Shown here: piece by piece, positions 2,449 through 43,740 of the stretch
How the letters are laid out: every line of letters begins with the position of its first letter
Numbering within the stretch: position 1 is the stretch's first letter
Made by a program: the position numbers and the translations under genes
Notes under the pieces: model-generated
The model's database searches: none
Seen by the model: only the letters and a program-made list of their open reading frames with translations
Told to the model about the DNA's origin: nothing
Origin: Cenococcum geophilum
Lineage: Eukaryota
Reading direction: 5' to 3'
Assembly (NCBI GenBank): GCA_050273025.1
Contig: CP158635.1
Span: 12,400,001 to 12,464,000, forward strand
Length of the DNA: 64,000 bases

Positions 2449-4294
2449 CTACCAATCCCCCCACTCATCCTCCTTCCCCGCCGGCGCCTGCCCTCCCGCC
2501 CCCGCTCCCCCCTTCTTCATCGCCGCCGTCCCAATCCCCGCCGGCTTACTCCTCACCGCTACGACCCCCACCCCGGGCCCCGCCGCCCCCACCTCGCCCG
2601 CACTAGAAAACTCATCCCAGAAATCCCTCTTATCGGGCGCGGGCCCCGTCGGCGGCTGGCCGAACGAGTCCCAGAAGTCCTTCTTCTCAGGCGCTGTTGT
2701 ACTGCGGGGCCTGTTCGCCGACGACTGATTAGGGTCATGGTCATCCGCGGAGCCCTCGACGAAGCGGGACAGCGAGGTCGCGGCGGCGGAGGTGCCCTGC
2801 TGGATGCCCTGGCCAAGCGTGGCGGCTGTTTGGCGGGCTTGGGCTGTGAGGTCGGCTTCGGCGAGCTGTATAGACATGTATTAGCAATTGGAGAATCCCC
2901 GTCCGGAGCCCCCGGCGTAAAGCAGATGTAGAGAATGCTGTGCGAGCCCAATCCCTATCCTCATGCCCATCCCACCCCCTAACCACCACACCCGCACCCC
3001 CCAACCAACAAAAACCAAGCAAAGAACCACAAAAAAAACAACATACCTTCTGCACCCCCGGCTTAACCCACCCCTCATACCCCGTTCTGGCCCCCTTCCC
3101 CACCGTCGCGCCCAGCCACCCAAACCCCTTCGTCAGCGCCGCCACGGGATCCTTCTGGAACTCATCCAGCGCCGGCGGGGCCCCCTCCTCGCCCTCCCCC
3201 CCACCCCCCTTCCACCCCGCCGGCTCGCTCCCAAACCCCGCATACTTCCCGCCCTGACTCGGCGGCAGCTCCGCCGGGCGCTGCGCATTCTCAGCCCCCA
3301 TGCGCGCAAAGAAAGTCTCGTTCTGCGTCTTCTTCGACGGTGCAAGCGACGCCGTCCCAAGCGAGGGGGACGCCGACCGCGCGGGGATGCCGCCGCCGCC
3401 GCCGCCGCCGCCCGCCACGTCCGACGACCGCGTCCGCGACAGCGGCGTCTGCGACCGCGACCCGGCCGCCGAAGCGCGCCCACTCGTCGGCACCGCCGCC
3501 GCTGCTCCATCCCTCTTCCCACGCTTCGGCAGCTTCTCGGCGTCGAAGTCGCGCCCCTCGACTTTGCAGCTCAGTCGCTCCTTCCACTCGTCTCCGGCAG
3601 CGGAGTCGTATCTCTCTGCGATGGTGGACGCGGCGAAGGAGCGGCCGGCCGCGGCGTTGGAGCCGTGCGCGTTGAAGAAGGCCCGGAAGGGCTCGTTGCC
3701 GCCGGCGGCCATGCGCGCCAGCTCGGCGGGCTTGAAGGCGTCCATGGTTATCGAGCGCACGAAGGAGATGTGCACGCCTAGCCCGCGGTGGATCCCGCTG
3801 CAGGAGAGGCACATGAAGATGCCGAGTTTGGGGGAGGCCTGGAGGGCGGGAGGAGAGGGGAGGTTAGTGCTGGACGGAATTGGGGGGGAGAGGTGTGTGG
3901 GCGGTGGGGAGAGGAGAAGGGGTTGTGTGGATTGGGTTCGCGGGCTTCTGTAGAGGTGTGCTAGTGTGTATGGGATGTAATCGGCGGGCGTGGTGGTGGA
4001 GGGAGAGAGGCATGTACCCATTGCGGACTCGGCGCATTGCAATCAACGCAGATATTGTTCCCGTTCTCTTTCTGGATCTCGAGCAACTGTGAAAAAAAGG
4101 CGCACCAGATATTAGCTACTGCTCAAGAATATTCACTGAAACCTCGACGTGTTGAGTGGCACAGCTCTTCAGGAGTCTCTCTGCAACGAGCGAAACCCAG
4201 CGCGTAAGCCAGGTCTTTGCGGCAGAGTGTGTTGAGGGAATGTGTAGGAATGGTGGCCTACCTTGCTCCTGGTTTCAGGATCAACTTCCCACAT
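2449..4294 (-). CDS. GCS1: ADP-ribosylation factor GTPase-activating protein (Gcs1/ArfGAP1-like), 4 exons
   Basis: Exons 4294-4262 (MWEVDPETRSK), 4086-4018 (NNICVDCNAPSPQW), 3838-3047 (ASPKLGIFMCLSCSGIHRGLGVHISFVRS...SQGGKYAGFG) and 2865-2449 (...DFWD...DEWGDW*), joined by GT-AG introns. The ArfGAP CxxC...CxxC zinc finger is split by intron 2. Confidence 0.93.
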
Positions 4295-5117: not shown

Positions 5118-6853
5118 TCATTGATCTGTCGGATCCGGATTTCTCACCTGTATTCATGTCAGCGTCGAGTTGAACAAGAGACATCACCGAGACTACTCAC
5201 ATTCAGAGTCCTGGTATAGTCCCGGTTATCTTCGATCGTTATTATACTGGTGTGGCTCCCGTTGTCCAAATCCATTAATGCCGTCGGATTCAGTCTCTGG
5301 TCATAGAACAGCGGCCTACTGTTTCTCCTTTCCGATATCGGGCTGATTGAGTCAATCGTGTCGAGCCCATGCGAGCTGCTTCGATTCACCGTTGTCGTGA
5401 TTACTGGCGGAATATAAGAATCTTTCTCCGTCTTCAAAAGACCCGTCTTACTCAATGTGCTGGTATTTCTTCGCGGGGGAAGAGTTGTTGCTGTAGCCTC
5501 CGAATCTTCCGCATTTTTATTCCGCTTGTGCCGAGACAGCAGAAGGAAAACGACGGCGCCGATTAGCGCGAGCCCCACAACCGATCCGACCACAGCTCCG
5601 GCAATGGCACCCTTGGAAACTCCTTTCTTAGGTGTTTGTGTCATTTGTGACGGATCAGTGGGCATGCTGGTGACGGTTTGTACCACCACTGCCCCGCTGA
5701 CCGTAATGGTTTGCACACTAGTTATAGGAGTTGCTACCCACGTGGAGCTGTGGGTTTGCGTTGCTTGCGTTGCTTGCGTTGCTGGTGACGATGCAGGAGC
5801 CGAGGTGGGTTGAGATGACGAGGTTGCTGCAGCTGGAGTCTATTTCAAGTTGATTAGCATGAGAATGATTCAAATCGACTCAAAGGAATAGAAAAAGGGA
5901 AAAAGAACAGGCTTTATCATACAGGAGTAACAACGGAACTAAATACCGAAGGTGATGCAGTGACCGTCCTAAAAACAGTCTTTGGATCGTCAACGGTCTG
6001 CTTCGCAGTAGGAGAAGGAGAAGAAGTTGGCGGAGCCGATGGACTCTGCAGAAAAAGTCAAAAAAATGCAAATCGAGGAAGTGGGTGAGGAATAAGAGCA
6101 AACCAAACTAATATAAGTTGACAAAACGGCAGACGAAATTATAACCAAAGACGTTGAATGTATAATCAGAAGACTTGACTGCGTAGACAACCCAAAAGTA
6201 GATTTGGATTTATGCCGAGAAGACAAGGACGTCCGCGTCGCGGAAGAGAGAAGTGTTGAAGTAGGTGAAATAGAGAACGAGGAAGAGGGTAAACCAACCG
6301 TCGTCTCTGAAGACCTAGAAGAAGAAAACGCCGCCGAAGTTGTAGGCAGCGAAGAGAATGTAGATGAAGGCACAGATAAAGAAGAGGTGGTTGGGCTACT
6401 GACCGTTGAACTAGTGCTCGAGGCGGCTCCCATGGTCCCAGAAGGACTCTTACTCAACGCAACATAACCAAACAGATCATTGTTTGAAGATCCACAACTC
6501 TCGGCGGGAAAGCCGGGACATTTATCGCTGCAGTCTGAGACGGATGACTGGTCAGCGGGAATGTAGTTTGAGCACCAGCAATTGTTCCCTTGTACAATTG
6601 CGAAGGCGTAATCGTCCTGGCAATGTGTTGAGCACCATCCGTTGGACTGCCACGTCCAATATGCTGTGAGGCTGTCAGCGAAAGTTATCTCAGAGAAATG
6701 GGGTGTGTCGTTCATACATGCTCCATTGCTTGCGCCTGTGTTTTCGGTCGAGCAGTACTCCTGAGTCAAAGAATCGGTACGGTCTATGAGTAGAGTGAGA
6801 ACGAGGGTTGCTACCATGAAGAGGCCCGAATAGTAAGGCATTGAGCCAGTCAT
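5118..6853 (-). CDS. WSC-domain cell-wall integrity sensor (Wsc1/Slg1-like), 4 exons
   Basis: Signal peptide, WSC domain (QSNGWCSTHC..YAFAIVQGNNCWCSN..CSDKCPGFPAESCG), Ser/Thr stalk, TM helix (GAIAGAVVGSVVGLALIGAVVFLLL) and cytoplasmic DQRLNP...DNRDYTRTLNVRNPD. Introns at 6717-6664, 6403-5840 and 5200-5148; stop TGA at 5120-5118. Confidence 0.9.
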
Positions 6854-9318
6854 GGTCGTGGTTGTGGATGTGGATTGTGGTCGTGTTCTCTCAGAGTAGG
6901 GTAGGATGGGATGGAGTAAAGACCGACGCGTGGGTGTGAAGAGCCTCACAGCGCCACGCGGTATTAATTCCTTCTCAAAGCGATTGTGTGATTATTAAGG
7001 GTTGTGCAGTAAGATGGTGAAAGGTGTCGAGGTCAATTGGTGAATTGAGACAGGTGTATGAGTGGACGAGGCAGGTATCCGGGGTGACAGGTTGCACAGA
7101 CAGATTTCACACTGCCTAGCCACCGATGAAAGCTCGGACTGAGGGAGTTGTCGATGAGGTTGTCAGAGACAGCAGATTCCTGGCAGCTGGGAAGCAAAGC
7201 CCGAAGTGATCGCTGGTGGCTTGCACAACAGCGCCGAGGAATAGCGATACGAGAGCTTCGGGTCTAGCACGGCGGCGAGCTGTCGGTCAGCATTTTCTCA
7301 AACTTTTCCCCTCGACCTGGAGGGCTTGAAGGAAAGGAATTGAAGAGGTTGGATCGGGAGGGAAGGCAAGAGATCGGAGAGCGGACATGATGGTGGAATA
7401 GTGGGAAGGAATGCCGCGAGCTTTGGGGGAAAGCTCGGGTTCAAGGTTTTGACCGAGGTGGTTTAGCGAAAGGCTTACCGCAAGACGGACGGGGGGGTTC
7501 CCTGCGAAAAAGAAGAGGTAGATCACTGTCAGCCCCGTTTTTGCCGTGCCAACAGGAAAGCGGACAGGGGTGAACAAGGCCGAACAAGGACGGTCGAACG
7601 ACGGTCAAGGACGATCAAGGACGGTTTGGGATGCACAGGACAGGTAATTGCAAAAGCCGCATCTACTCAATCGGGAGCCTGTGATTCCGCTGTTTGCCGT
7701 CGATAGTTCCGATAGTCCCAACCCAGTTCCCCAACCAAACGGCGATTTATTAATGTCGTGATGCACCCTCCTCCTTCGCCCTGGGTAGACCGACTGACTG
7801 AAGAGTGGCACGGGTGGCTACTACGATGGTAAAAGCCTCTCGCCCCTTCTCCGTCATGACGTGGACGAAAGCGGCGAAATGCAGTCTCGCAGCCACGGCC
7901 AGCTCGAGACTCGCAGATAGACGATCAGATTATATCCAATGCGGAACGACTATGCTGCCCTGTGGAGAATGGACAACAAGGGCTGGAAACCCACGGGCCC
8001 AGATCAAGAGCCTTCCAAACTGCGGCGCAAAATAGGGCGATTGAATAAAAAAGCGAATGTACGCGTCGTCCGTGGAATTGCTTCAGCGGAACGATCGCAA
8101 TAATGGACCCAAGTGCACAGAGCGAAATGAAAAGAAAAAACGAACGAATGTCGAGAAGGTCGGAGGGGAATGTCTCAAAGATGGGAGCGAAAAGGGCAGG
8201 AAATAGTCCTTGATCAGAAGATTCTCGCCTGCTGATCCCGCTTGTCGGCGCAAATTTAGAAGCACTTGCAGGGTCGTATTCGTGACTAGGATGTCCGGGC
8301 AGGATTGCGGGGAGGGGCGCAGGGGAACCAGAGAAAAATAACCCCAGAACAATCAAGAACAACCACATCAATTGCCATTAGAAGGCTTAATATTTATTCT
8401 ATATATACAGGGGGTTCGCGTTTGACAGGTGTCAGCCCTCTCTCCGCTGGCCGTTTCTTCTCTGCAGGCTTCAGGAGTTGTGGCTCCGTCGACTGCAGTA
8501 GTGCTCCGTAAAGCTGTTTGCGAAGGCGAAGCACAGCGTGACAGTTTGAGACAAAAGCCCCTCGGCTCAGGAGCGTGGCCATCCAGTGCCACCAGACGCT
8601 GTGGGCCAGCTCGGCGAGAGCAGTAAAAGAAAAAAACTTTTCACCCTTGGGGAAGCTTGGGGAGACTGAAGAAGTTTGGAAAGGTCGTCCGGCATTCGGG
8701 CGTCTCGCCGAAATCGTGTATCAGTGCTTCCAGAACGCTTCTTCATCACAAAACTGGCTGTGACAGTCTGCCATACCGCTGCCGGAGTGCATGTAATGTA
8801 TGATATGCATGATACGCTTGATACGTGGACATACCCTCACGGCCTCTCTTCACAACCTATGGGCGCGTTGAAGCGCTCTATCTACGGCTTTAGGCTGTAT
8901 TTGGCAATGTCAGCTGCCCTTCACCCGAAAGCGGACAGTCTCAGGCCAAAATGAGACTCTGTTGTCTCGTCCCGATCGAATCTCCACCAATCGTGATGCC
9001 AAGGCTCAAGATCGCAGCGGTGGTGGCGTTCCCTAGGGCGCTGTCGCTGTTTGGTTCGTGAACCACGTCTCGCTTAAGGTCGCCGAAGTCTTGGCCCTGC
9101 GCCTTGACAGACATTGCATCATAAGGAGGCGAAGCTAACGAGGAGGCGAAGCTAACGAAGAGGCGGGAGACTTTGTAGGTGCTGTGGGCGCTGTAAGATT
9201 TGCACGGCGAAAAAAAAGAACTAACGCGTTTCAAGATGGACAGGAGACAAGGACCTTGATACCCTGGAATTTTCGACCATCGTTGCGCTTTTAAGCATGC
9301 TAGAGGTGCCTTTGTTAT

Positions 9319-14760: not shown

Positions 14761-17504
14761 ATGGCTGAAGCCATTGCAGTCATCAGTTTCGTATCCGCTG
14801 TCTGCTCCCTGGCCGACTATGGAACAAGAGTTGTGAAGCGCTTGAACGAATTCAGGACCAACGTCCATAACCTTCCCCAAACATTTCTTCATATTAGCGA
14901 CCAGCTACCCCTATTAACCGATACCGTGAATCGCATTCACCGGCAAGCAAAAGATGGTCATCCGAGCCCACAGACCGAGACGGTGCTACGCCCGGTGGTA
15001 GAAGGTATTCATGCACAATTGACACAGCTCGACTCTGTTCTTGTCAAGGTGTTGCCTTCTGCCAAAGCTTCAACGTGGGAGAAAGGCATCAAGGCAGTCA
15101 GAAGCTTAAAGGCCCAGAAAACTATTGACGACTTTGCTTCAGTCATCGATCGCTACATTTTAAACCTCACGGTCTACCAGACTACCCATAATGGTGATCT
15201 AATTAAAACTTTAATCAAGTTAATAGAACAGATGAACTCTCCGCGACTGCAGGACGTCCAAGTCGCGCCGCCGAGGAAGCCTTACTTCATGGTTCGCTAT
15301 CAAACTGACGAGGATTTCATCGGTCGCGAAAAGATCGTGGAGGAAATTAGGCGACGATTCGGGAGGAAAAATCGAGTGGCTATAGCTGGGATAGGCGGTG
15401 TTGGGTACGCTTTCCAGGTTGCCGGATTGATTTTGACTATTCTATTAATACAAACTGCAGAAAGTCCCGTATTGCCATTGAATACTGTTATCAGTACAGA
15501 AGGGACAACCCAGACGCCCACGTATTCTGGGTGCACGGTGGTAACAAAGTCAGATTCGAAGCAGCTTATCAAGAGATGGCAAGGACGATGAAGATACCTG
15601 GCTTCGATGACCCGAAGATCAATACTCTCCAGCTAGTTTCCGATTGGCTGACTGATGAAGACAACGGTTCTTGGCTAATGGTGTTAGATAACGCCGATGA
15701 CGCCGAGGTCTGGACCGAGCCTGCCATACAAGAGTCCTCCCAGCAAGACGGTCTCTACCGGTCAGCGCCTTTGATTGATTATATACCTCGAGGCTTACAT
15801 TGCTTTGTGCTGATCACAACGAGGAACGGCCAGCTTGGGGAGACACTTGCAGAAGTTAAGAGGGAAAAACCAATCGATGTTCTACCACTTGTCCCGAAGG
15901 ACGCGGAAAGTTTGCTGCGGAGGAAACTCTCAGAAAATGACGATATTAGCCAAGAGGATGCGAATGAGATTACGGAAGCTTTGGATTACCTCCCCCTTGC
16001 TATCACCCAGGCGGCGGCATATTTAGATCAGAACCGTATAACTGCCGCCGAATATCTTCATCTGTTCAGAGATGGTGAAGCAGATACCTCAGAACTCTTG
16101 GAGCAGGACATTTATGACGCAGGCCGCGACTATGAGATCCAAAACTCTATCTTCCGGACCTGGAAGATCTCCTTCGATCAGATTCTTAAGCAAGACCCAC
16201 GCGCGGCCGAGGTGTTGTCTCTCATGGCCATGTTGGATCGACAGGCAATATCGGAAAATTTGTTGCGGAAAAATGAGGAGCGGAAGTTAAAGTTCAATGC
16301 CGCCATCCAGAAGTTGAAGGCCTTCTCATTAATCACAGAGGAAATAAAGCCATCAATCTTCAGCATGCATCGCCTCATCCAGCTTTCAACCCAAATGTGG
16401 CTAGAGCATCAGAATGAACTGTCGAGATGGCAAGAAGCAGCGTTATCTACGGTGGCTGAATGCTGCCCGCTTAATGGGAACTACGAGAACTGGATCTCGT
16501 TGGAGGCTATAAGCCCGCATCTTCAGGTTGTGCTGGATTACCAATTTAGTACAAAACCTTGTCAGCTACAGCGCGCGAAAATACTGTTCACATTAGGATG
16601 GTACAACTACGAGCAGGGTCGATATTCGAAAGCCTACCAGCTCTATTTGGAATCTCTGGTGCTTCGAGAGAGTAATCTTGGGCCGGAGCATTCCGACACA
16701 CTGGACAGCATAAACAACCTGGCGTTGGTGCTATGGAGCCAAGGCAAGTACGGCGAGGCCGAGAAGATGCACCGACGAGTGTTGGGAGTAAGAGAGAAGG
16801 TGCTTGGGCTAGAACATTCCGGTACACTGAATTGCATAAACAACCTGGCGTTGGTGCTACGGAGCCAGGGCAGGTATGGCGAGGCCGAGAAGATGCACCG
16901 ACGAGTGTTAGAGGTGAGGGAGAAGGTGCTTGGGCTAGAGCATTCCGATACACTAAACTGCATAAATAACCTAGCGTTAGTGCTACGGAGCCAGGGCAGG
17001 TACGACGAGGCTGAGAAGATGCACCGACGAGTGTTAGAGGTAAGGGGGAAGGTACTTGGCCCCGAGCATCCTAATACGCTAACCAGCGTAAACAACCTGG
17101 CGTTTGTGCTACGGAGCCAGGGAAATTACAACGAGGCCGAGGAGATACACCAACGAGCGTTGAAAGTAAGGGAGAAGGTGCTTGGCCCCGAGCATCCCGG
17201 TACGATGACTAGCATGAATAACCTAGCGGAGGTATTACGGAGCCAGGGAAATTACGGCGAGGCCGAGAAGATGCACCGACGAGCGTTGGAAGTGAGGGAG
17301 AAGGTGCTTGGCCCTGAGCATCCAGATACGTTATCGAGTGTATATGGCCTTGCCAACCTACATCAGTGCCGGAAACAATACGGTGATGCGTCTATCCTTT
17401 ATCAAAGGGCCTGCTCAGGATATCAGAAGATACTTGGCTCTGACCATCCCGACACTCTAAAATGTTCAAAGGACTACCTTTCCATGCTGGGCTCTCTACT
17501 ATAG
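14761..17504 (+). CDS. Fungal NLR: SesA-like N-terminal domain + NB-ARC + TPR repeats (2 exons)
   Basis: N-terminus MAEAIAVISFVSAVCSLADYGTRVVKRLNEF (SesA-like). P-loop GIGGVG|KSRIA is split by intron 15405-15460. Walker B WLMVLDNADD, LITTR, YLPLAITQAAAY, MHRLIQ, then 42-aa TPR repeats (NNLALVLRSQGRYGEAEKMHRRVLEVREKVLG.EH). Confidence 0.93.
16660..17350 (+). repeat. Highly similar 126-nt TPR-coding tandem repeats (5 near-complete units) within the NLR
   Basis: Repeated AAYAACCTRGCG...CGGAGCCAGGG...GAGGCCGAGAAGATGCACCGACGAG...GAGAAGGTGCTTGG at 126-nt spacing. Confidence 0.9.
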
Positions 17505-17824
17505 GGCGGAATTTCAACAACTCAAATCATGCTTGTCCGACAAGAAGCAGCAGAAATCGGTGACCTAAAGTTCCTTAAGCCGATCGAGAATGCAGCCAGG
17601 GGTGTGGTTAGCTTGCTTCAAACTGCTGCACGGGAATTACGTATTGGTCATCAAGACATAAATATTGTGGTCAGAGATCAAGCTCAAACTTAATGATGCA
17701 TATAGTAGTGACTGGACAGGGAGCGCGATAGGTGTGTCTCACCAGTATAATAGTGTTGGGGTGGGAATAATGGGAAGGCTCTGATTGGGAACAAGTATGG
17801 TGGGAAAAGCTTTGGGACAATTGA
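17505..17824 (+). pseudogene. 3' remnant of a HET-S-like gene (end of HeLo domain + HET-s-related amyloid motif R1/R2)
   Basis: With three 1-nt frameshifts it reads QIMLVRQEAAEIGDLKFLKPIENAARGVVSLLQTAARELRIGHQDINIVVRDQAQT/NDAYSSDWTGSAIGVSHQYNSVGV/NNGKALIGNKYGGKSF/WDN*. The end matches the HET-s PFD end (VLIGNEYGGKGFWDN). Confidence 0.82.
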
Positions 17825-18778
17825 ACACGTCTATGACGACCAGGCTGACGGACGAGCCATTCCTCATCGTCAAGCTCGTAGAACTGGGATCATTTACTTG
17901 AGATCGGAACGGCTTATATTAGCCACAAGGGCCTGTAATGATACTCAATGACGCTTCAATCCCTCGTTTGCTTGATTTCGTAATGGTGGGTTAATCCTAA
18001 GGCTCAATTCTGAGGCTGCTAGCCATAATCGGGCTAGCTGCTTCTATCCTCGCATCCACCTAATCAAATTGCTACGCTCCGGTCAGCATTTTAATACATC
18101 TACGCACGTAATAGCACTGAATTATCGTAACTCCTTATAAGTGCAGCAAGCCTCAGTCGAAATAGGATTTTGTCTGTCCGCGATCTTGTACATTCCTCAA
18201 CTTTGAAATATGATTTCTGACGCTTTCCCAAAGTTGAACGTCGGGCAAGTTAATTCACTCACTTAATTTTAAGGCAGGATTTGCTTACTTGTTATCAAGG
18301 GCAACGATGACCTTCGATTACGCCATTAAAGAGGTATAGAAAGTCTACTTGATTTCAAATAACCGCCAAGATTTCAAAGCTAGTCAAGCTTAAGCCGATA
18401 CTATATGTAATAATGTAAGCTTTGCAGAGTGTGGAAATGCATGAACGACTTGATTGTAAATGTAGCTCTAGAGGCTCTATATATATACACGAAGAGGGTA
18501 GAAATGATGGGGTAATAGATAGCTAAAACGGGAACGGTGATCTACAAGCAATATTGATCTGCAAGTCAATATATAAGGTGGCTGTCTTGGAGCCCTCCAG
18601 GTGACGATCTCGACACAGTGTCGGTAGTCGGTTACAAATAAAATGGTTCTTTTTTCTAAGGGTATAGAAAGTAAGAGACCTGTGATAGAGGCGGGTGGCT
18701 GAAGAATTATCAAAAGCTAAACTCGGGCATTGAAATACAGCCTGATGGGTAGCCTATAACAACTATGTCTCCACAAAT

Positions 18779-19950
18779 CAGTGTGGGTAACAGTTAGCGT
18801 CGCTGGCAGCGTCGCTGATAGCTAGCTGCTGATGTAAGCAGTCAGTCAGCGTATAGAGTTATAACAGTCAGTCTACGATATATATACAGCGCGCTGACAG
18901 CTCGCTGCATAGGTGGTAAGAAAAGATAGATCTTGAAGCTTTTGGTAGAAGTTAAGGATATTCGGATATTCGGCTTAAATCCGGTTGGCCACTGACGCGC
19001 CAAGCACGGGAAACCTCTGGGATACTCATAGTACATAGTACTGTTTTCCCTAAAATCCCCGTCGCGTAGATGAACTTGTCCCCTCGCGATATTTACCTTT
19101 TTACCAACACGGGGCAATGCAACGCACCTTATATTTTACCTGCCGAGTAGTAGAGCTTCTTCCTCTGCTTCTTCCTCTGCTTCTTCCTCTGCTTCCTCCT
19201 TATTGCCTCTACAATCTACGCCTTAATTAAGCCACTCAGTAATCCGCAGGCGTCTTGGCTCTACTGCTTCCGTCCCCTCGCGGTTGAAGATACCCCGAGT
19301 CGGACGAGTCGAACGACTCTGCATTGCGCGAGCCTCTACCAATCGGCCGAGCCACCTAACCCAAATCCCTGCTACTGACGTCATTATCAAAACCTCCACA
19401 GGCGCGCTGAACGAATTTAACGATATTTAAATACTATATGGGGTAAACTGGGGTAGATTTGAAATTTGTCGGACGGACAAGTCACTCATAAGAACTCTGT
19501 CGATTGAAGCTGGCTCTAGAAGCTCTCTATATACATGAGGTCGGGGCAAAAGACTGACGACGACGCTGACGACGATTCTGGAACTATTACTCAATCGCCA
19601 CCAGGTCGATATTGCCACTCAGTCGGTGATAGGTAATGAATAGGTAATAGAAAGTAGATAGTAAGACATACGATGGCAAGAAACAGGTGTGAGTCATAAG
19701 GTGGTACTTGACAGTGACCTCAACGTTCGACAAAATTGGGCAACGTTAATATTTGTATATATAGAGGTGCTGCCAACAATCTATAATTTAACTTTATGAC
19801 TATCAGATCTATACAATTTACCCGATTTGGATAAGCGCGCTGACAGCTGTGCAGTCAGCGTATACATATACCCAGCGAGCGGACAGCGAGCGATTCAATT
19901 AGTACAGTTAGTCAGCGAAGCTCGCTGTACGCTGACTGTTACCCACACTG
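18779..19950. mobile_element. Non-autonomous hAT element (1172 bp)
   Basis: 22-bp TIR CAGTGTGGGTAACAGT(T/C)AGCGT with 1 mismatch; perfect 8-bp TSD CCACAAAT at 18771-18778 and 19951-19958; subterminal GTCAGCG repeats. Confidence 0.92.
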
Positions 19951-20099
19951 CCACAAATAGCCGTGACAGCCGCTCGATGTTCGCGAGGGAACCAAAGAAG
20001 GTTCACGTTTCTTCCACTTATCCACTCATCCCTTACAAGTAGTTCGGACAAATGAACTGACTAAGGGAGTATACTCACGGCATGAGAATGAAGCCGAAA

Positions 20100-21634
20100 A
20101 GAACCCCTGTTTGTTTCAAGGCGTGATCCGTCTATCGAGAAAGAAAGAATACATAGATCTTCAAAGCCCTCGAGCCTCTACAGCGCGGCACCTGTGGCGG
20201 CGTCTCGGAGCCGTATCGTCTTGTCCTGTGAGGCCGACGCTACCTACTTGACGTCCGGCGAAAATGTAACGGCTCCGACTAAGCTAGTATGCCCTTTAAG
20301 CTTCTGCAGCGCGGCGCCTGTGGCGGCGCCCCAGAGCCGTACCGTCTTCTCGTCCAAGGCCGACGCCACCTGCTTACCGTCCGGTGAGAACATGATGGCT
20401 CTAATTAAGCGGTGTGCTCCTCGAGCCTTTGCAGCGCGGCGCGTATCGCGGCATCCTAGAGGCGCACTGTCTTGTCGACCGAGGCCAACGCTACCTGCTT
20501 GCCGTCCGGCGAGAATGTGACTGCCATGGCCGAGTTAGTATGCCCTTCGAGCCCTTGTAGCGCGGTGCCTGCGGCGGCGCCTCAGAGCCGTACTGTCCTG
20601 TCCTGTGAGGCCGACGCTATTTGCTTGACAATGCTTGCCTTCCGGCGAGAACGTGACGGCTTCAACCGAGTCGGTATGTCCTTCAAACCTTTGTAACGCG
20701 ACGCCTGTGGCGGCGTCCCAAAGCCGTACCGTCTTGTCGTGCGAGGCCGACGCCACCTGCTTGCCGTCCGGCGGGAACGTGACGGCTCCGACCGGGTCGG
20801 TGTGCCCCTCGAGCGTCTGAAGAGGGGCACCCTAGACTTTTAAACTTGGGGTAACTGTGTAATCCATTTTGGTATGTAAGATATGAATTTCTTTCGGACT
20901 ATGCTCTCATCTGGCGCGAAAACAATAGCGGAACAGTCTGTTTGCAAAGGCGCTGTTTCAATTACAAATCGATTTGCGAGGATAAAACGCGTAGCATCAT
21001 GGAGGAAACTCGATACCTCCATGCTCTCACCCGGCTGTAAGAGTATCTTTAGTAGGCCGTTTTAACATTATGCTAGTGAAAACTTACTTCAAGGAGGCAG
21101 TGTGATTTATGAATCATTCGAATGCTTTCGGATATTAGCCCAGCCAAACTTATAGCCTCGAGCCAGTAACGGTAAGCATACTGGGCTTCCTTTGGTAGGC
21201 GATCCGAGATTGTTTAGGTGCTGACATCCCGTCGTAGGATTCCAGGATTTAGTAAATTGCAGATGTTTTACTTTAGCTTACCAGGGCTAGACATCAGTTA
21301 GATCCACCTTCTTGCTATTTTAAGATGCGTTCCATTTTCGTCTACCCAGAACGGACTTAAGGAATCTAGATCGCTACATCTCTCCTTGTCTACAAAGAAG
21401 TCGCGAAATAATAGGTGATACAGATAAAGCGGCCGGTGTGTCCTTTAGAATATCCAGGATGGCGTAGAGGTCCGCAAGTCCCCGCTCTATAGCCCCCTTA
21501 GGAAGATGAAGTAAGCTATAAAGTAAGCCAAGAAACAGCGGTAAGTATAGGACTATAATGTAGATTTTGTTGGGTTAGTGTTCTAGTGCTGAAGTAGATG
21601 TGATTCTGTCTAGTATCTTAGCTGGTCTCTTCGC
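20100..21634 (-). pseudogene. NACHT-WD40 NLR (HET-E/NWD-like), 3' part
   Basis: About 5 HET-E-type WD40 repeats (ASASHDKTVRLWDAATGVALQRFEGHTDSVEAVTFSP), plus the linker SSFLHDATRFILANRFVIETAPLQ..SAIVFAPDESIVRKKF; frameshifts and RIP stops. Confidence 0.85.
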
Positions 21635-42996: not shown

Positions 42997-43740
42997 AGCG
43001 TATCCTCTTGTCAGCCGGACATACCAGGTCAGGAACAAACTCGTGTAAGGATTGAAATCTACGTAGATGCAGGCTTATATACAGGCAGTGTAGTACCCCC
43101 CATAGGGGTCCCTGGAGAGCGGTGAAACTAAGCTAAAACTGGGCTAAAACTGACGTCTAACAAGTCGACACCTCTCCCTTTGCGGATAAAACGACATGCT
43201 GTCGCAGCCTAGATAAATAGACCACTGGTATTTGGAACCAGCCGTCTAAGAGCTTGCTCGCTTAACCGGCCGGCTTTAAGAGTTTATTCCTGTCTAATTA
43301 ATCTTAATTTATAGTCTAGAAAAATAGAAAAATAATCGTCTATAATAGCCGCATTTAGTATTATAAAGGATAAAGTTGTGGTACTTAGCAGTAGGAATCT
43401 AGCAGAAGCTGTAGCGGATTAGAACCTCTAGTCTACTTATAATTAGCACCCGCAGCCGGACCTTCTTTAGCGATCGAGCCTTATCTCAGAGTCGCAGAAC
43501 AATTTGCATGTTGTTTTTACCTTTATATTCGTCTAAAGCATCCAACACTATAATATACGATAGGTACGTGTTACCGCCGTTTAGCTTTAAAAGTAATCTA
43601 AGTACGAGTTGGCGGTATTAATCTGCGAGGGACTAGCTTATGATAATACTACACTCTATAAGAATATTACGAATGTACCGCTGGACTGGCAGAATGTATA
43701 TCGCAAGCTGTATAGTAATAGTAGTAATAAACTTTAGTAA
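42997..43740 (-). pseudogene. NACHT-WD40 NLR, 5' part (NACHT domain remnant)
   Basis: KFITTITIQLA...SLAD*YRQLVLRLL.KL...YIIVLDALDEY (Walker B)...ARSLKKVRLRVLIISRLEV.IRY. Continues the 20100-21634 pseudogene across the hAT insertion. P-loop and N-terminal domain not found. Confidence 0.78.

Follow-up and report, generated by a model that had tools for sequence, protein, structure and literature searches.

In Podospora, HET-S combines a pore-forming HeLo domain with a prion-forming domain (PFD) made of two pseudo-repeats, r1 and r2, and its partner, a NOD-like receptor (NLR; NWD2 in Podospora), carries a single copy of the motif, r0, at its N-terminus. As described in the sections of PMC4518210 that deal with this system, the activated NLR templates the PFD into a β-solenoid amyloid, whereupon the toxicity of HeLo is released; the same sections generalise the arrangement to the HET-s-related amyloid motif (HRAM) families and give for HET-s-type repeats a pattern of 21 residues with G at position 19, hydrophobic residues at 5, 8, 10, 16 and 18, and R/K at 15. 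There, as in the corresponding part of PMC9815663, amyloid motifs are placed at the N-terminus of NLRs and at the C-terminus of effectors. Such modules can decay: according to passages of PMC13449251, nwd2/het-s-type modules of the Podospora complex degenerate by stops, frameshifts, deletions and C>T/G>A changes resembling repeat-induced point mutation (RIP), are associated with transposons and show presence/absence or pseudogene polymorphism between strains. Those passages do not treat the Cenococcum geophilum locus that is the subject of this study. Here, we describe a stretch of 64,000 nucleotides of this fungus (contig CP158635.1, positions 12,400,001 to 12,464,000; hereafter the window), in which an NLR gene of the SesA/P-loop/TPR type on the forward strand is joined to what we consider, with a probability of about 85%, the non-functional remnant of a HET-S-like gene (17485–17824, with homology of the 3′-untranslated region (3′-UTR) to ~17925).

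Identity of the sequence behind the NLR gene

Beyond the TAG of the NLR gene (17502–17504) the same frame stays open for 62 codons (17505–17690) and is closed by a TAA at 17691–17693, just as a preliminary description of this DNA had read it. The coding homology then continues with NDAYSSDWTGSAIGVSHQYNSVGV in the frame whose codons begin at positions leaving a remainder of 1 on division by three (frame 1; frames 0 and 2 are named likewise), with NNGKALIGNKYGGKSF in frame 0, and with WDN in frame 2, followed by TGA at 17822–17824. A search of 5.8 billion proteins with the 62-residue piece, which covered proteins of 110–2000 aa, yielded only two matches among 121 candidates, P0001 (E 5.5e-12) and P0002 (E 1.1e-11), both of which are HeLo proteins. 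P0001 is truncated (147 aa) and shares 66% identity with the relic over 56 aa, and P0002 (341 aa) is 65% identical to the 62-residue piece. Residues 67–261 of P0002 correspond to the Pfam HeLo domain (PF14479, E 2.4e-45), the protein matches the HET-S/HET-s HeLo structures 2wvo and 2wvn in the PDB (E 1e-50), and its residues 292–340 match the HET-s(218–289) fibril chains 2kj3, 2rnm and 2lbu (E 0.002). As judged by these matches, P0002 can be regarded as a genuine HET-S homologue. Its family is large and already known; a HMMER search of 1.84 billion cluster representatives retrieved 1772 relatives at E ≤ 0.001, many of which are ~280–290 aa long and match from end to end.

To place the relic within this family, a hidden Markov model (HMM) comprising 81 sequences of P0002 relatives and 288 positions was run on all 4509 six-frame fragments of the window. 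Fragments of the relic rank 1st, 2nd, 3rd and 5th, and they are colinear on the profile: the fragment 17461–17565 falls on positions 148–162, 17505–17690 on positions 181–239 (E 1.1e-4), 17662–17781 on positions 241–268, and 17754–17948 on positions 271–285. The X-masked read-through peptide scores 54.4 bits over positions 180–287, as compared to 7.3 bits for the best of 1000 shuffled versions (830 of which were reported), and aligns with residues 210–340 of P0002 at 54% identity. Together, the E-values and the shuffle controls exclude chance similarity.

Single pieces of the relic are less informative when taken alone. The final piece retrieves two PDB entries only, the HET-s fibril chains 2mus and 2kj3, at a weak E of 0.54 and with GNNGKALIGNKYGGKSF aligned to KGESRVLIGNEYGGKGF. 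The first piece (piece A) retrieves no HET-s chain from the PDB, its sole match being an unrelated reductase (E 0.8), and the Pfam collection including PF14479 gives no match at E ≤ 10 on the three single-frame pieces. The match to the PDB, the family HMM and the pattern of the motif are the basis on which a putative PFD is assigned to the relic. The relic is invisible both to Pfam and to programs that call open reading frames (ORFs).

Of the HeLo span (P0002 residues 67–261) the relic retains only the equivalents of residues 210–219 and 242–261, and neither tblastn nor the family HMM detects an equivalent of residues 1–209 anywhere in the window. Hence, the two central statements of the preliminary description, namely that a HET-S-type relic lies behind the NLR gene and that its 5′-part was lost at the junction with this gene, are borne out; a comparison of the peptide with HeLo proteins, which had been proposed there as a means to refute the identity, returned the matches given above.

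Junction, lesions and intact relatives

The lesions were placed with the aid of 18 metagenome loci harboring HET-S-like genes, which the relic matches at 72–80% DNA identity over 285–405 nt; six of these relatives (L001, L002, L012, L014, L015 and L017) were used for the nucleotide alignment. Homology to HeLo sets in at ~17485–17488 (GCTGGGCTCTCTAC..). The relic does not begin right behind the stop codon, as had been proposed, but inside the last codons of the NLR gene and in another frame. This first segment (17485–17518, +) reads WALYYRAEFQ in frame 1 from 17488, corresponding to P0002 residues 210–219 by tblastn and DNA alignment, at a site where the relatives have W-A/V-L/I-Y-H-R-S/A-E-L/F, and it is 82% identical to L001 over 39 nt (blastn, E 1.3e-4). 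As the segment overlaps the end of the NLR gene, it is HeLo-derived DNA, read in a frame not its own, that provides the last four NLR codons (GSLL) and the stop codon; within W-A-L-Y-H-R, the TAG is made up of the last base of the Tyr/His codon and the AG with which the Arg codon begins.

The C-termini of the nearest NLR homologues point to the same position. Seven of nine (P0274, P0275, P0276, P0277, P0027, P0278 and P0281) end with ..S/A-L/M-L-E/Q-E/N-M-K/T, some of them with two further residues, and the other two (P0279 and P0280) have different endings. The NLR in the window ends with ..KDYLSML-GSLL-stop, and the point where it diverges from its homologues is the point where the HeLo homology starts. 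By this comparison the NLR is full length except for its last 4–6 residues.

At 17518|17519, 61 nt are deleted; the respective columns are present in all six aligned relatives and missing in the window only. The run-on in frame after the TAG exists because this later deletion, which corresponds to 20 codons and one base, shifts the relic into the NLR frame. The second segment (17519–17690, +) accordingly is read in the NLR frame and comprises the end of the HeLo domain and the pseudo-repeat r1 (..IGHQDINIVVRDQAQT). At 17691–17693 (+), a one-base insertion (17691) together with changes from TGG to TAA generates the in-frame TAA and a frameshift: the window has CAAACTTAATGAT, five of the six relatives have CAAAC-TGGTGAT, L002 has CAGAC-CGGAGAT, and none of the six contains the inserted base. 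The loop and the first half of r2 follow in frame 1 (17692–17765, +), with one base lost at ~17764, and the rest of r2 together with the tail in frame 0 (17766–17812, +; NNGKALIGNKYGGKS.), with one T lost from a T-run at ~17811. The last part (17813–17824, +; frame 2) contains WDN and the TGA that was the stop codon of the HET-S-like gene itself; it is found at the same place in five of the six aligned relatives, and L012 has a TAA one base earlier. The former 3′-UTR of the gene lies at 17825–17925 (+), and homology to L015, L012 and L013 extends to 17920–17925 (74–78% identity, blastn). Taken together, the ORF of the relic is truncated at its 5′-end, has lost 61 nt, contains three 1-nt indels and is interrupted by a TAA. 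The three single-base indels had been counted correctly before, and the 61-nt deletion had been overlooked.

In addition, we observed 38 changes private to the window at 274 columns conserved among the relatives. They are distributed over codon positions 1, 2 and 3 as 18, 10 and 10, and 19 of the 38 are G>A or C>T, as is typical of an unconstrained, drifting sequence in a genome subject to RIP-like mutation. The repeats themselves remain recognizable. In the numbering of PMC4518210, and in a register that is our own reading, r2 is V-S-H-Q-Y-N-S-V-G-V-x-N-N-G-K-A-L-I-G-N-K, with G at 19, hydrophobic residues at 5, 8, 10, 16 and 18, K at 15 and H at 3. The repeat r1, which carries private changes in the window, fits the 21-residue pattern only with a gap of two residues before the G.

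The lesions were further compared with public sequencing runs. Of the 24 runs listed, 20 (15 studies) contain 88% or more of the words sampled from 16800–18600. Four runs were aligned. In three of them, X1, X2 and X5, each from another study, one contig spans 17254–18440 without a differing letter or gap, indicating that the stops and frameshifts are not the error of one assembly. X2 is possibly the source sample of the window, so that at most X1 and X5 are independent. Moreover, X1 and X5 are labelled as RNA and their contigs are genome-like; they were therefore not counted as transcription. The fourth run, X21, is considered below.

The related loci retain the paired layout of the module. 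Of the eleven loci whose sequence extends 300 nt or more upstream, ten (L001–L005, L007, L009–L011 and L018; E 1.6e-7 to 0.15 with an HMM of the r2 region) have a motif of the r0 type immediately in front of the HET-S-like gene and on the other strand; in L008 it was not found with this HMM. L007 has a HET-S-like gene of 280 aa (HeLo E 5.6e-49) and, facing it, a P-loop/TPR NLR that bears ..GNQYQHIRIDQGAKAQLGDQYN.. at its N-terminus, and in L003 and L005 the partner is of the NACHT+WD40 type (NACHT in both, plus WD40 in L005). The N-terminus of the L003 partner, that is its r0, matches r2 of P0002 at E 8e-4. As outlined in parts of PMC4518210 and PMC9815663, such a divergent pair of r0-bearing NLR and HET-S-like gene is the canonical layout of amyloid signalling. 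In the window, the r2-region HMM detects no r0; it finds the relic's own r2 (E 0.13), and the next best score is E 0.92. The same HMM and Pfam likewise reveal no r0 or amyloid motif at the N-terminus of the adjacent NLR. Because this N-terminus is a SesA domain without an amyloid motif, the adjacent NLR is not the templating partner of the HET-S-like relic. As a candidate for the lost partner we considered a NACHT-WD40 relic at 19956–21502 (−), and rejected it as it is convergent, is only 37–46% identical to the L003 and L005 partners and has no r0.

Several observations on the relatives may be added here. L014 and L015, 99.7% identical to each other, are interrupted by a TAA in frame, and their sequence is degenerate ahead of residue ~214. 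A truncation of both at the codon at which the relic is truncated was considered and discarded, as weak similarity continues upstream. The HET-S-like gene of L018 is read in three frames and is likewise decaying. In three loci, a Tc1/mariner-like transposase ORF (MAPN..SQH..I.DMILSKSL..) follows the HET-S-like gene on the same strand at a distance of 270–640 nt (L007, 6285–6758; L012, ~690–850; L015, 863–1534). Finally, of P0172 (1233 aa), P0254 (1052 aa) and P0260 (869 aa) only the first ~180–230 residues match P0002; in these long proteins, HeLo is probably the effector domain at the N-terminus of an NLR. HeLo in this position is a known alternative architecture.

Formation of the joint and alternative readings

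The locus is best explained by a single rearrangement, most simply a deletion, that would have joined the fifth-last codon position of a neighboring SesA/P-loop/TPR gene on the same strand to codon ~210 of the HET-S-like gene. This event would have removed the natural last 4–6 codons and the stop codon of the NLR gene, ~84% of the HeLo domain and the promoter of the HET-S-like gene, and, if the ancestral layout was that of the relatives, the divergent r0-bearing partner NLR as well. If the ancestral NLR gene read ..ATG CTG GAG.., up to 5 nt (GCTGG) would have been shared at the joint. Thereafter, the remnant would have drifted, acquiring the 61-nt deletion, the three 1-nt indels and the 38 private substitutions, half of which are GC>AT transitions. 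Its only present role would be a passive one, in that it supplies the GSLL codons, the TAG and probably the 3′-UTR of the NLR gene.

Several observations weigh against this reading, among them those on X21, a raw RNA-seq run of which ~12% was read. We obtained 29 reads, all 95–99% alike to the window, with the first mate on the minus strand and with 11 fixed differences; not a single read is at least 99% alike to the allele of the window. The reads at the locus span ~17327–17570, and the others lie on the repeat at 18425–18607. Since the reads carry NLR-side variants from 17383 on, they span the junction, which is the same NLR/HeLo junction as in the window. However, all six reads covering the stop codon (four different starts) have C at 17500 and at 17502, whereby CTA-TAG in the NLR frame becomes CCA-CAG. 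Therefore, a diverged transcribed allele or copy exists that shares the joint and lacks this stop. In the HeLo frame, these variants restore the His of W-A-L-Y-H-R, like in the relatives, and both T residues of the window, at 17500 and 17502, stand in a CpA>TpA context. As the X21 variants are present in no contig of X1, X2 or X5, they reflect a difference between alleles or strains rather than a second copy in those genomes, and the joint common to the window and X21 indicates that the fusion is older than their divergence (~6% in DNA). Furthermore, the Pfam model HET-s_218-289 (PF11558) matches none of the single-frame pieces at E ≤ 10. Yet it likewise misses the intact P0002; it does not reach this subfamily and is uninformative here. 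Lastly, distinguishing a deletion from another type of rearrangement would require an undeleted haplotype or the DNA of an NLR orthologue.

The X21 reads bear in particular on the idea that the NLR is translated into the relic, either in some alleles or by read-through. Such a chimeric receptor, in which SesA, P-loop and TPR regions would be followed at the C-terminus by a HET-s-type motif (at least r1), could seed HRAM amyloids or be seeded by them. It would be in agreement with the relic being in the NLR frame from 17519, with the CAG in place of the TAG in X21, where in addition a change of L to F at 17478 corresponds to the residue found in the homologue P0027, and with the distribution of the X21 variant as an allele or strain difference. 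However, the match in frame is the product of the 61-nt deletion inside HeLo and not of design, and in the window the TAG, the TAA at 17691 and three frameshifts lie between the NLR and the full motif. Moreover, the search with the 62-residue piece retrieved no protein of NLR length with this tail, an extension of this kind is absent from all 14 of the nearest NLR homologues that were inspected, and TAG-GGC is not known as a context of read-through. In X21, the depth declines from 7.67 (17449–17509) to 0.77 and then to 0 beyond ~17570, near the site of the 61-nt deletion. This is as expected if the X21 allele keeps the 61 nt, which it could, and the relic would then be out of frame. Loose read ends were not reported at this site. 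We thus regard a chimeric receptor as quite improbable, and it is very improbable that in the X21 lineage the NLR ORF runs on into the HET-s-type motif and so yields a natural NLR that bears an amyloid-signalling motif at its C-terminus. The preliminary description had left room for an NLR of this kind, formed by fusion or read-through, and had pointed out that the TAG is one step away from CAG. The latter is exactly what the X21 reads display; the former is mostly unsupported in the window, where the frames differ at the junction, but as the stop codon is not conserved in X21, it may still apply to that allele.

A dead relic of the same kind could also have arisen if ectopic recombination or transposon-mediated capture had brought the 3′-portion of a HET-S-like gene into the 3′-end of the NLR gene. 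The surroundings would be suited to such an event: the locus borders a transposon-rich, AT-rich region with 28–40% GC from 22 kb onward, a very high-copy repeat begins at ~18414 (word depth in the DNA run X2 up to 7323, as compared to 47.6 beside it), and a partner NLR remnant with r0 is not detectable in the window. On the other hand, the relic retains its own stop codon and ~100 nt of 3′-UTR homology, and the 251-nt stretch at 18034–18282 is 71% identical to 967–1187 of L012/L013, which lies downstream of the HET-S-like gene and is inverted there, suggesting that the relic is in its native downstream context. In addition, the window contains no remnant of the Tc1/mariner-like transposase, and 17800–20000 is free of internal repeats. 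We therefore deem a capture unlikely. That the relic is an artefact, with the indels being sequencing or assembly errors in an intact gene tail, or the similarity being fortuitous, is hardly conceivable. Two of the three 1-nt lesions do lie in short homopolymer runs (GGTGG-GAA, AGC-TTTGGG); yet, the contigs from three runs and three studies are identical, a repair of the indels would still leave the 5′-terminal 209 codons and the 61 nt missing, and chance is excluded by the E-values and shuffle controls. Hence, we favor the remnant of a HET-S-like gene that would have been joined to its neighbor by one rearrangement and has decayed since.

The NLR gene, its surroundings and known systems

The NLR gene consists of two exons. 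Exon 1 (14761–15404, +) encodes the N-terminal SesA domain (Pfam PF17107, E 5.4e-16) and the start of the P-loop (..GIGGVG), with the donor GT at 15405. The intron (15405–15460, +; 56 nt, GT..AG), which was read from the sequence, splits the P-loop, and its removal restores GIGGVG-KSRIAIEY. Exon 2 (15461–17504, +) encodes the P-loop NTPase region, DUF7779 (E 1.9e-07) and an array of TPR_10/TPR_12 repeats (TPR_12, E 4.7e-101). The coding sequence (14761–15404 joined to 15461–17504) comprises 896 codons including the stop and thus encodes 895 aa; it is identical in length and sequence (895 aa, 100% identity) to the public protein P0273, named in its source 'TPR-like protein [Cenococcum geophilum 1.58]'. 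Of the earlier label SesA-NB-ARC-TPR, the first and the last element are matched by Pfam, and a P-loop (GIGGVGKS) is visible after splicing; Pfam NB-ARC (PF00931), which is precomputed for several homologues, gives no match on the NLR in the window. The TPR array (16677–17329) is built of a 126-nt unit in 5.2 copies with 84% matches (Tandem Repeats Finder), and the read-derived contigs of all runs break within it, at 17254–17283. Repeats of such high internal conservation are of a type known from the sensor domains of fungal NLRs.

The window as a whole represents a cluster of incompatibility and NLR genes (NLR/HET) beside an AT-rich, transposon-rich repeat region (22–64 kb, 28–40% GC). To the left, we noted an ORF with a HET domain (436–2244, +; PF06985, E 8.8e-30) and ORFs with an ArfGap and a WSC domain (2744–4042, −, and 5993–6949, −, respectively). 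To the right, the border of the high-copy repeat (~18414–18640) interrupts the contigs of all runs, and 13 reads of X21 contain the joint 18461>18581, which skips 119 nt with the ends GT..TG. The NACHT-WD40 fragment at 19956–21502 (−) comprises WD40 repeats and the C-terminal part of NACHT, and a second NACHT piece at 43173–43734 (−) corresponds to partner residues ~104–290 at 39–51% identity. Both are colinear on the minus strand, are separated by ~21.7 kb of DNA with 28–37% GC and have no detectable r0; they may derive from a single NLR that was broken up by transposon insertions and RIP.

For the annotation of fungal immune-gene clusters, the locus provides a record at the base-pair level of how an NLR/amyloid cell-death module may die: the toxin domain, and presumably the sensor, would have been lost in one rearrangement, the amyloid-forming tail persists as debris, and the neighboring NLR takes a new stop codon from it. 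It also serves as a caution, since a 'hidden domain' in frame behind a stop codon can come about accidentally through a later deletion. The strain difference between TAG and CAG bears on the question of whether the C-termini of NLRs can capture an amyloid motif; if the X21 allele indeed encoded a chimera, a receptor could be recruited to HRAM-type amyloids, or could nucleate them, from its sensor end.

In comparison with HET-S/HET-s and NWD2 of Podospora anserina (2wvn, 2wvo, 2rnm, 2kj3), P0002 aligns end to end with the HeLo and PFD chains, the related loci have the divergent r0-NLR neighbor, and the tail of the relic (..GKALIGNKYGGKS.WDN) resembles that of HET-s (..SRVLIGNEYGGKGFWDN). In contrast to the Podospora pair, the relic is devoid of ~84% of HeLo, is frameshifted, has no r0 partner in the window and is welded to an unrelated NLR of the SesA type. 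Unlike in canonical HET-s, its repeats have H rather than N at position 3. By this H, as well as by G19, the hydrophobic positions and K15 of r2, it resembles HRAM3 as characterized in the text of Daskalov, Dyrka and Saupe (2015; PMC4518210), and on that description and our own register the relic is probably of this class. Two repeats behind HeLo, and r0 on the neighboring NLR in the relatives, are shared with the HRAM families as portrayed in the same text, whereas r1 of the relic is two residues shorter before the G than r2. The relic is thus an ordinary decayed gene of a well-known kind, which adds no new mechanism. What distinguishes it from the pseudogenised modules presented in passages of PMC13449251 is that here the effector, the HET-S-like gene, has decayed and not the NLR, and that its remnant has been taken over by another NLR for its terminal codons and stop. 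The particular points of the locus are its reconstruction to the base pair, the stop codon donated to another NLR and the TAG/CAG polymorphism at that stop.

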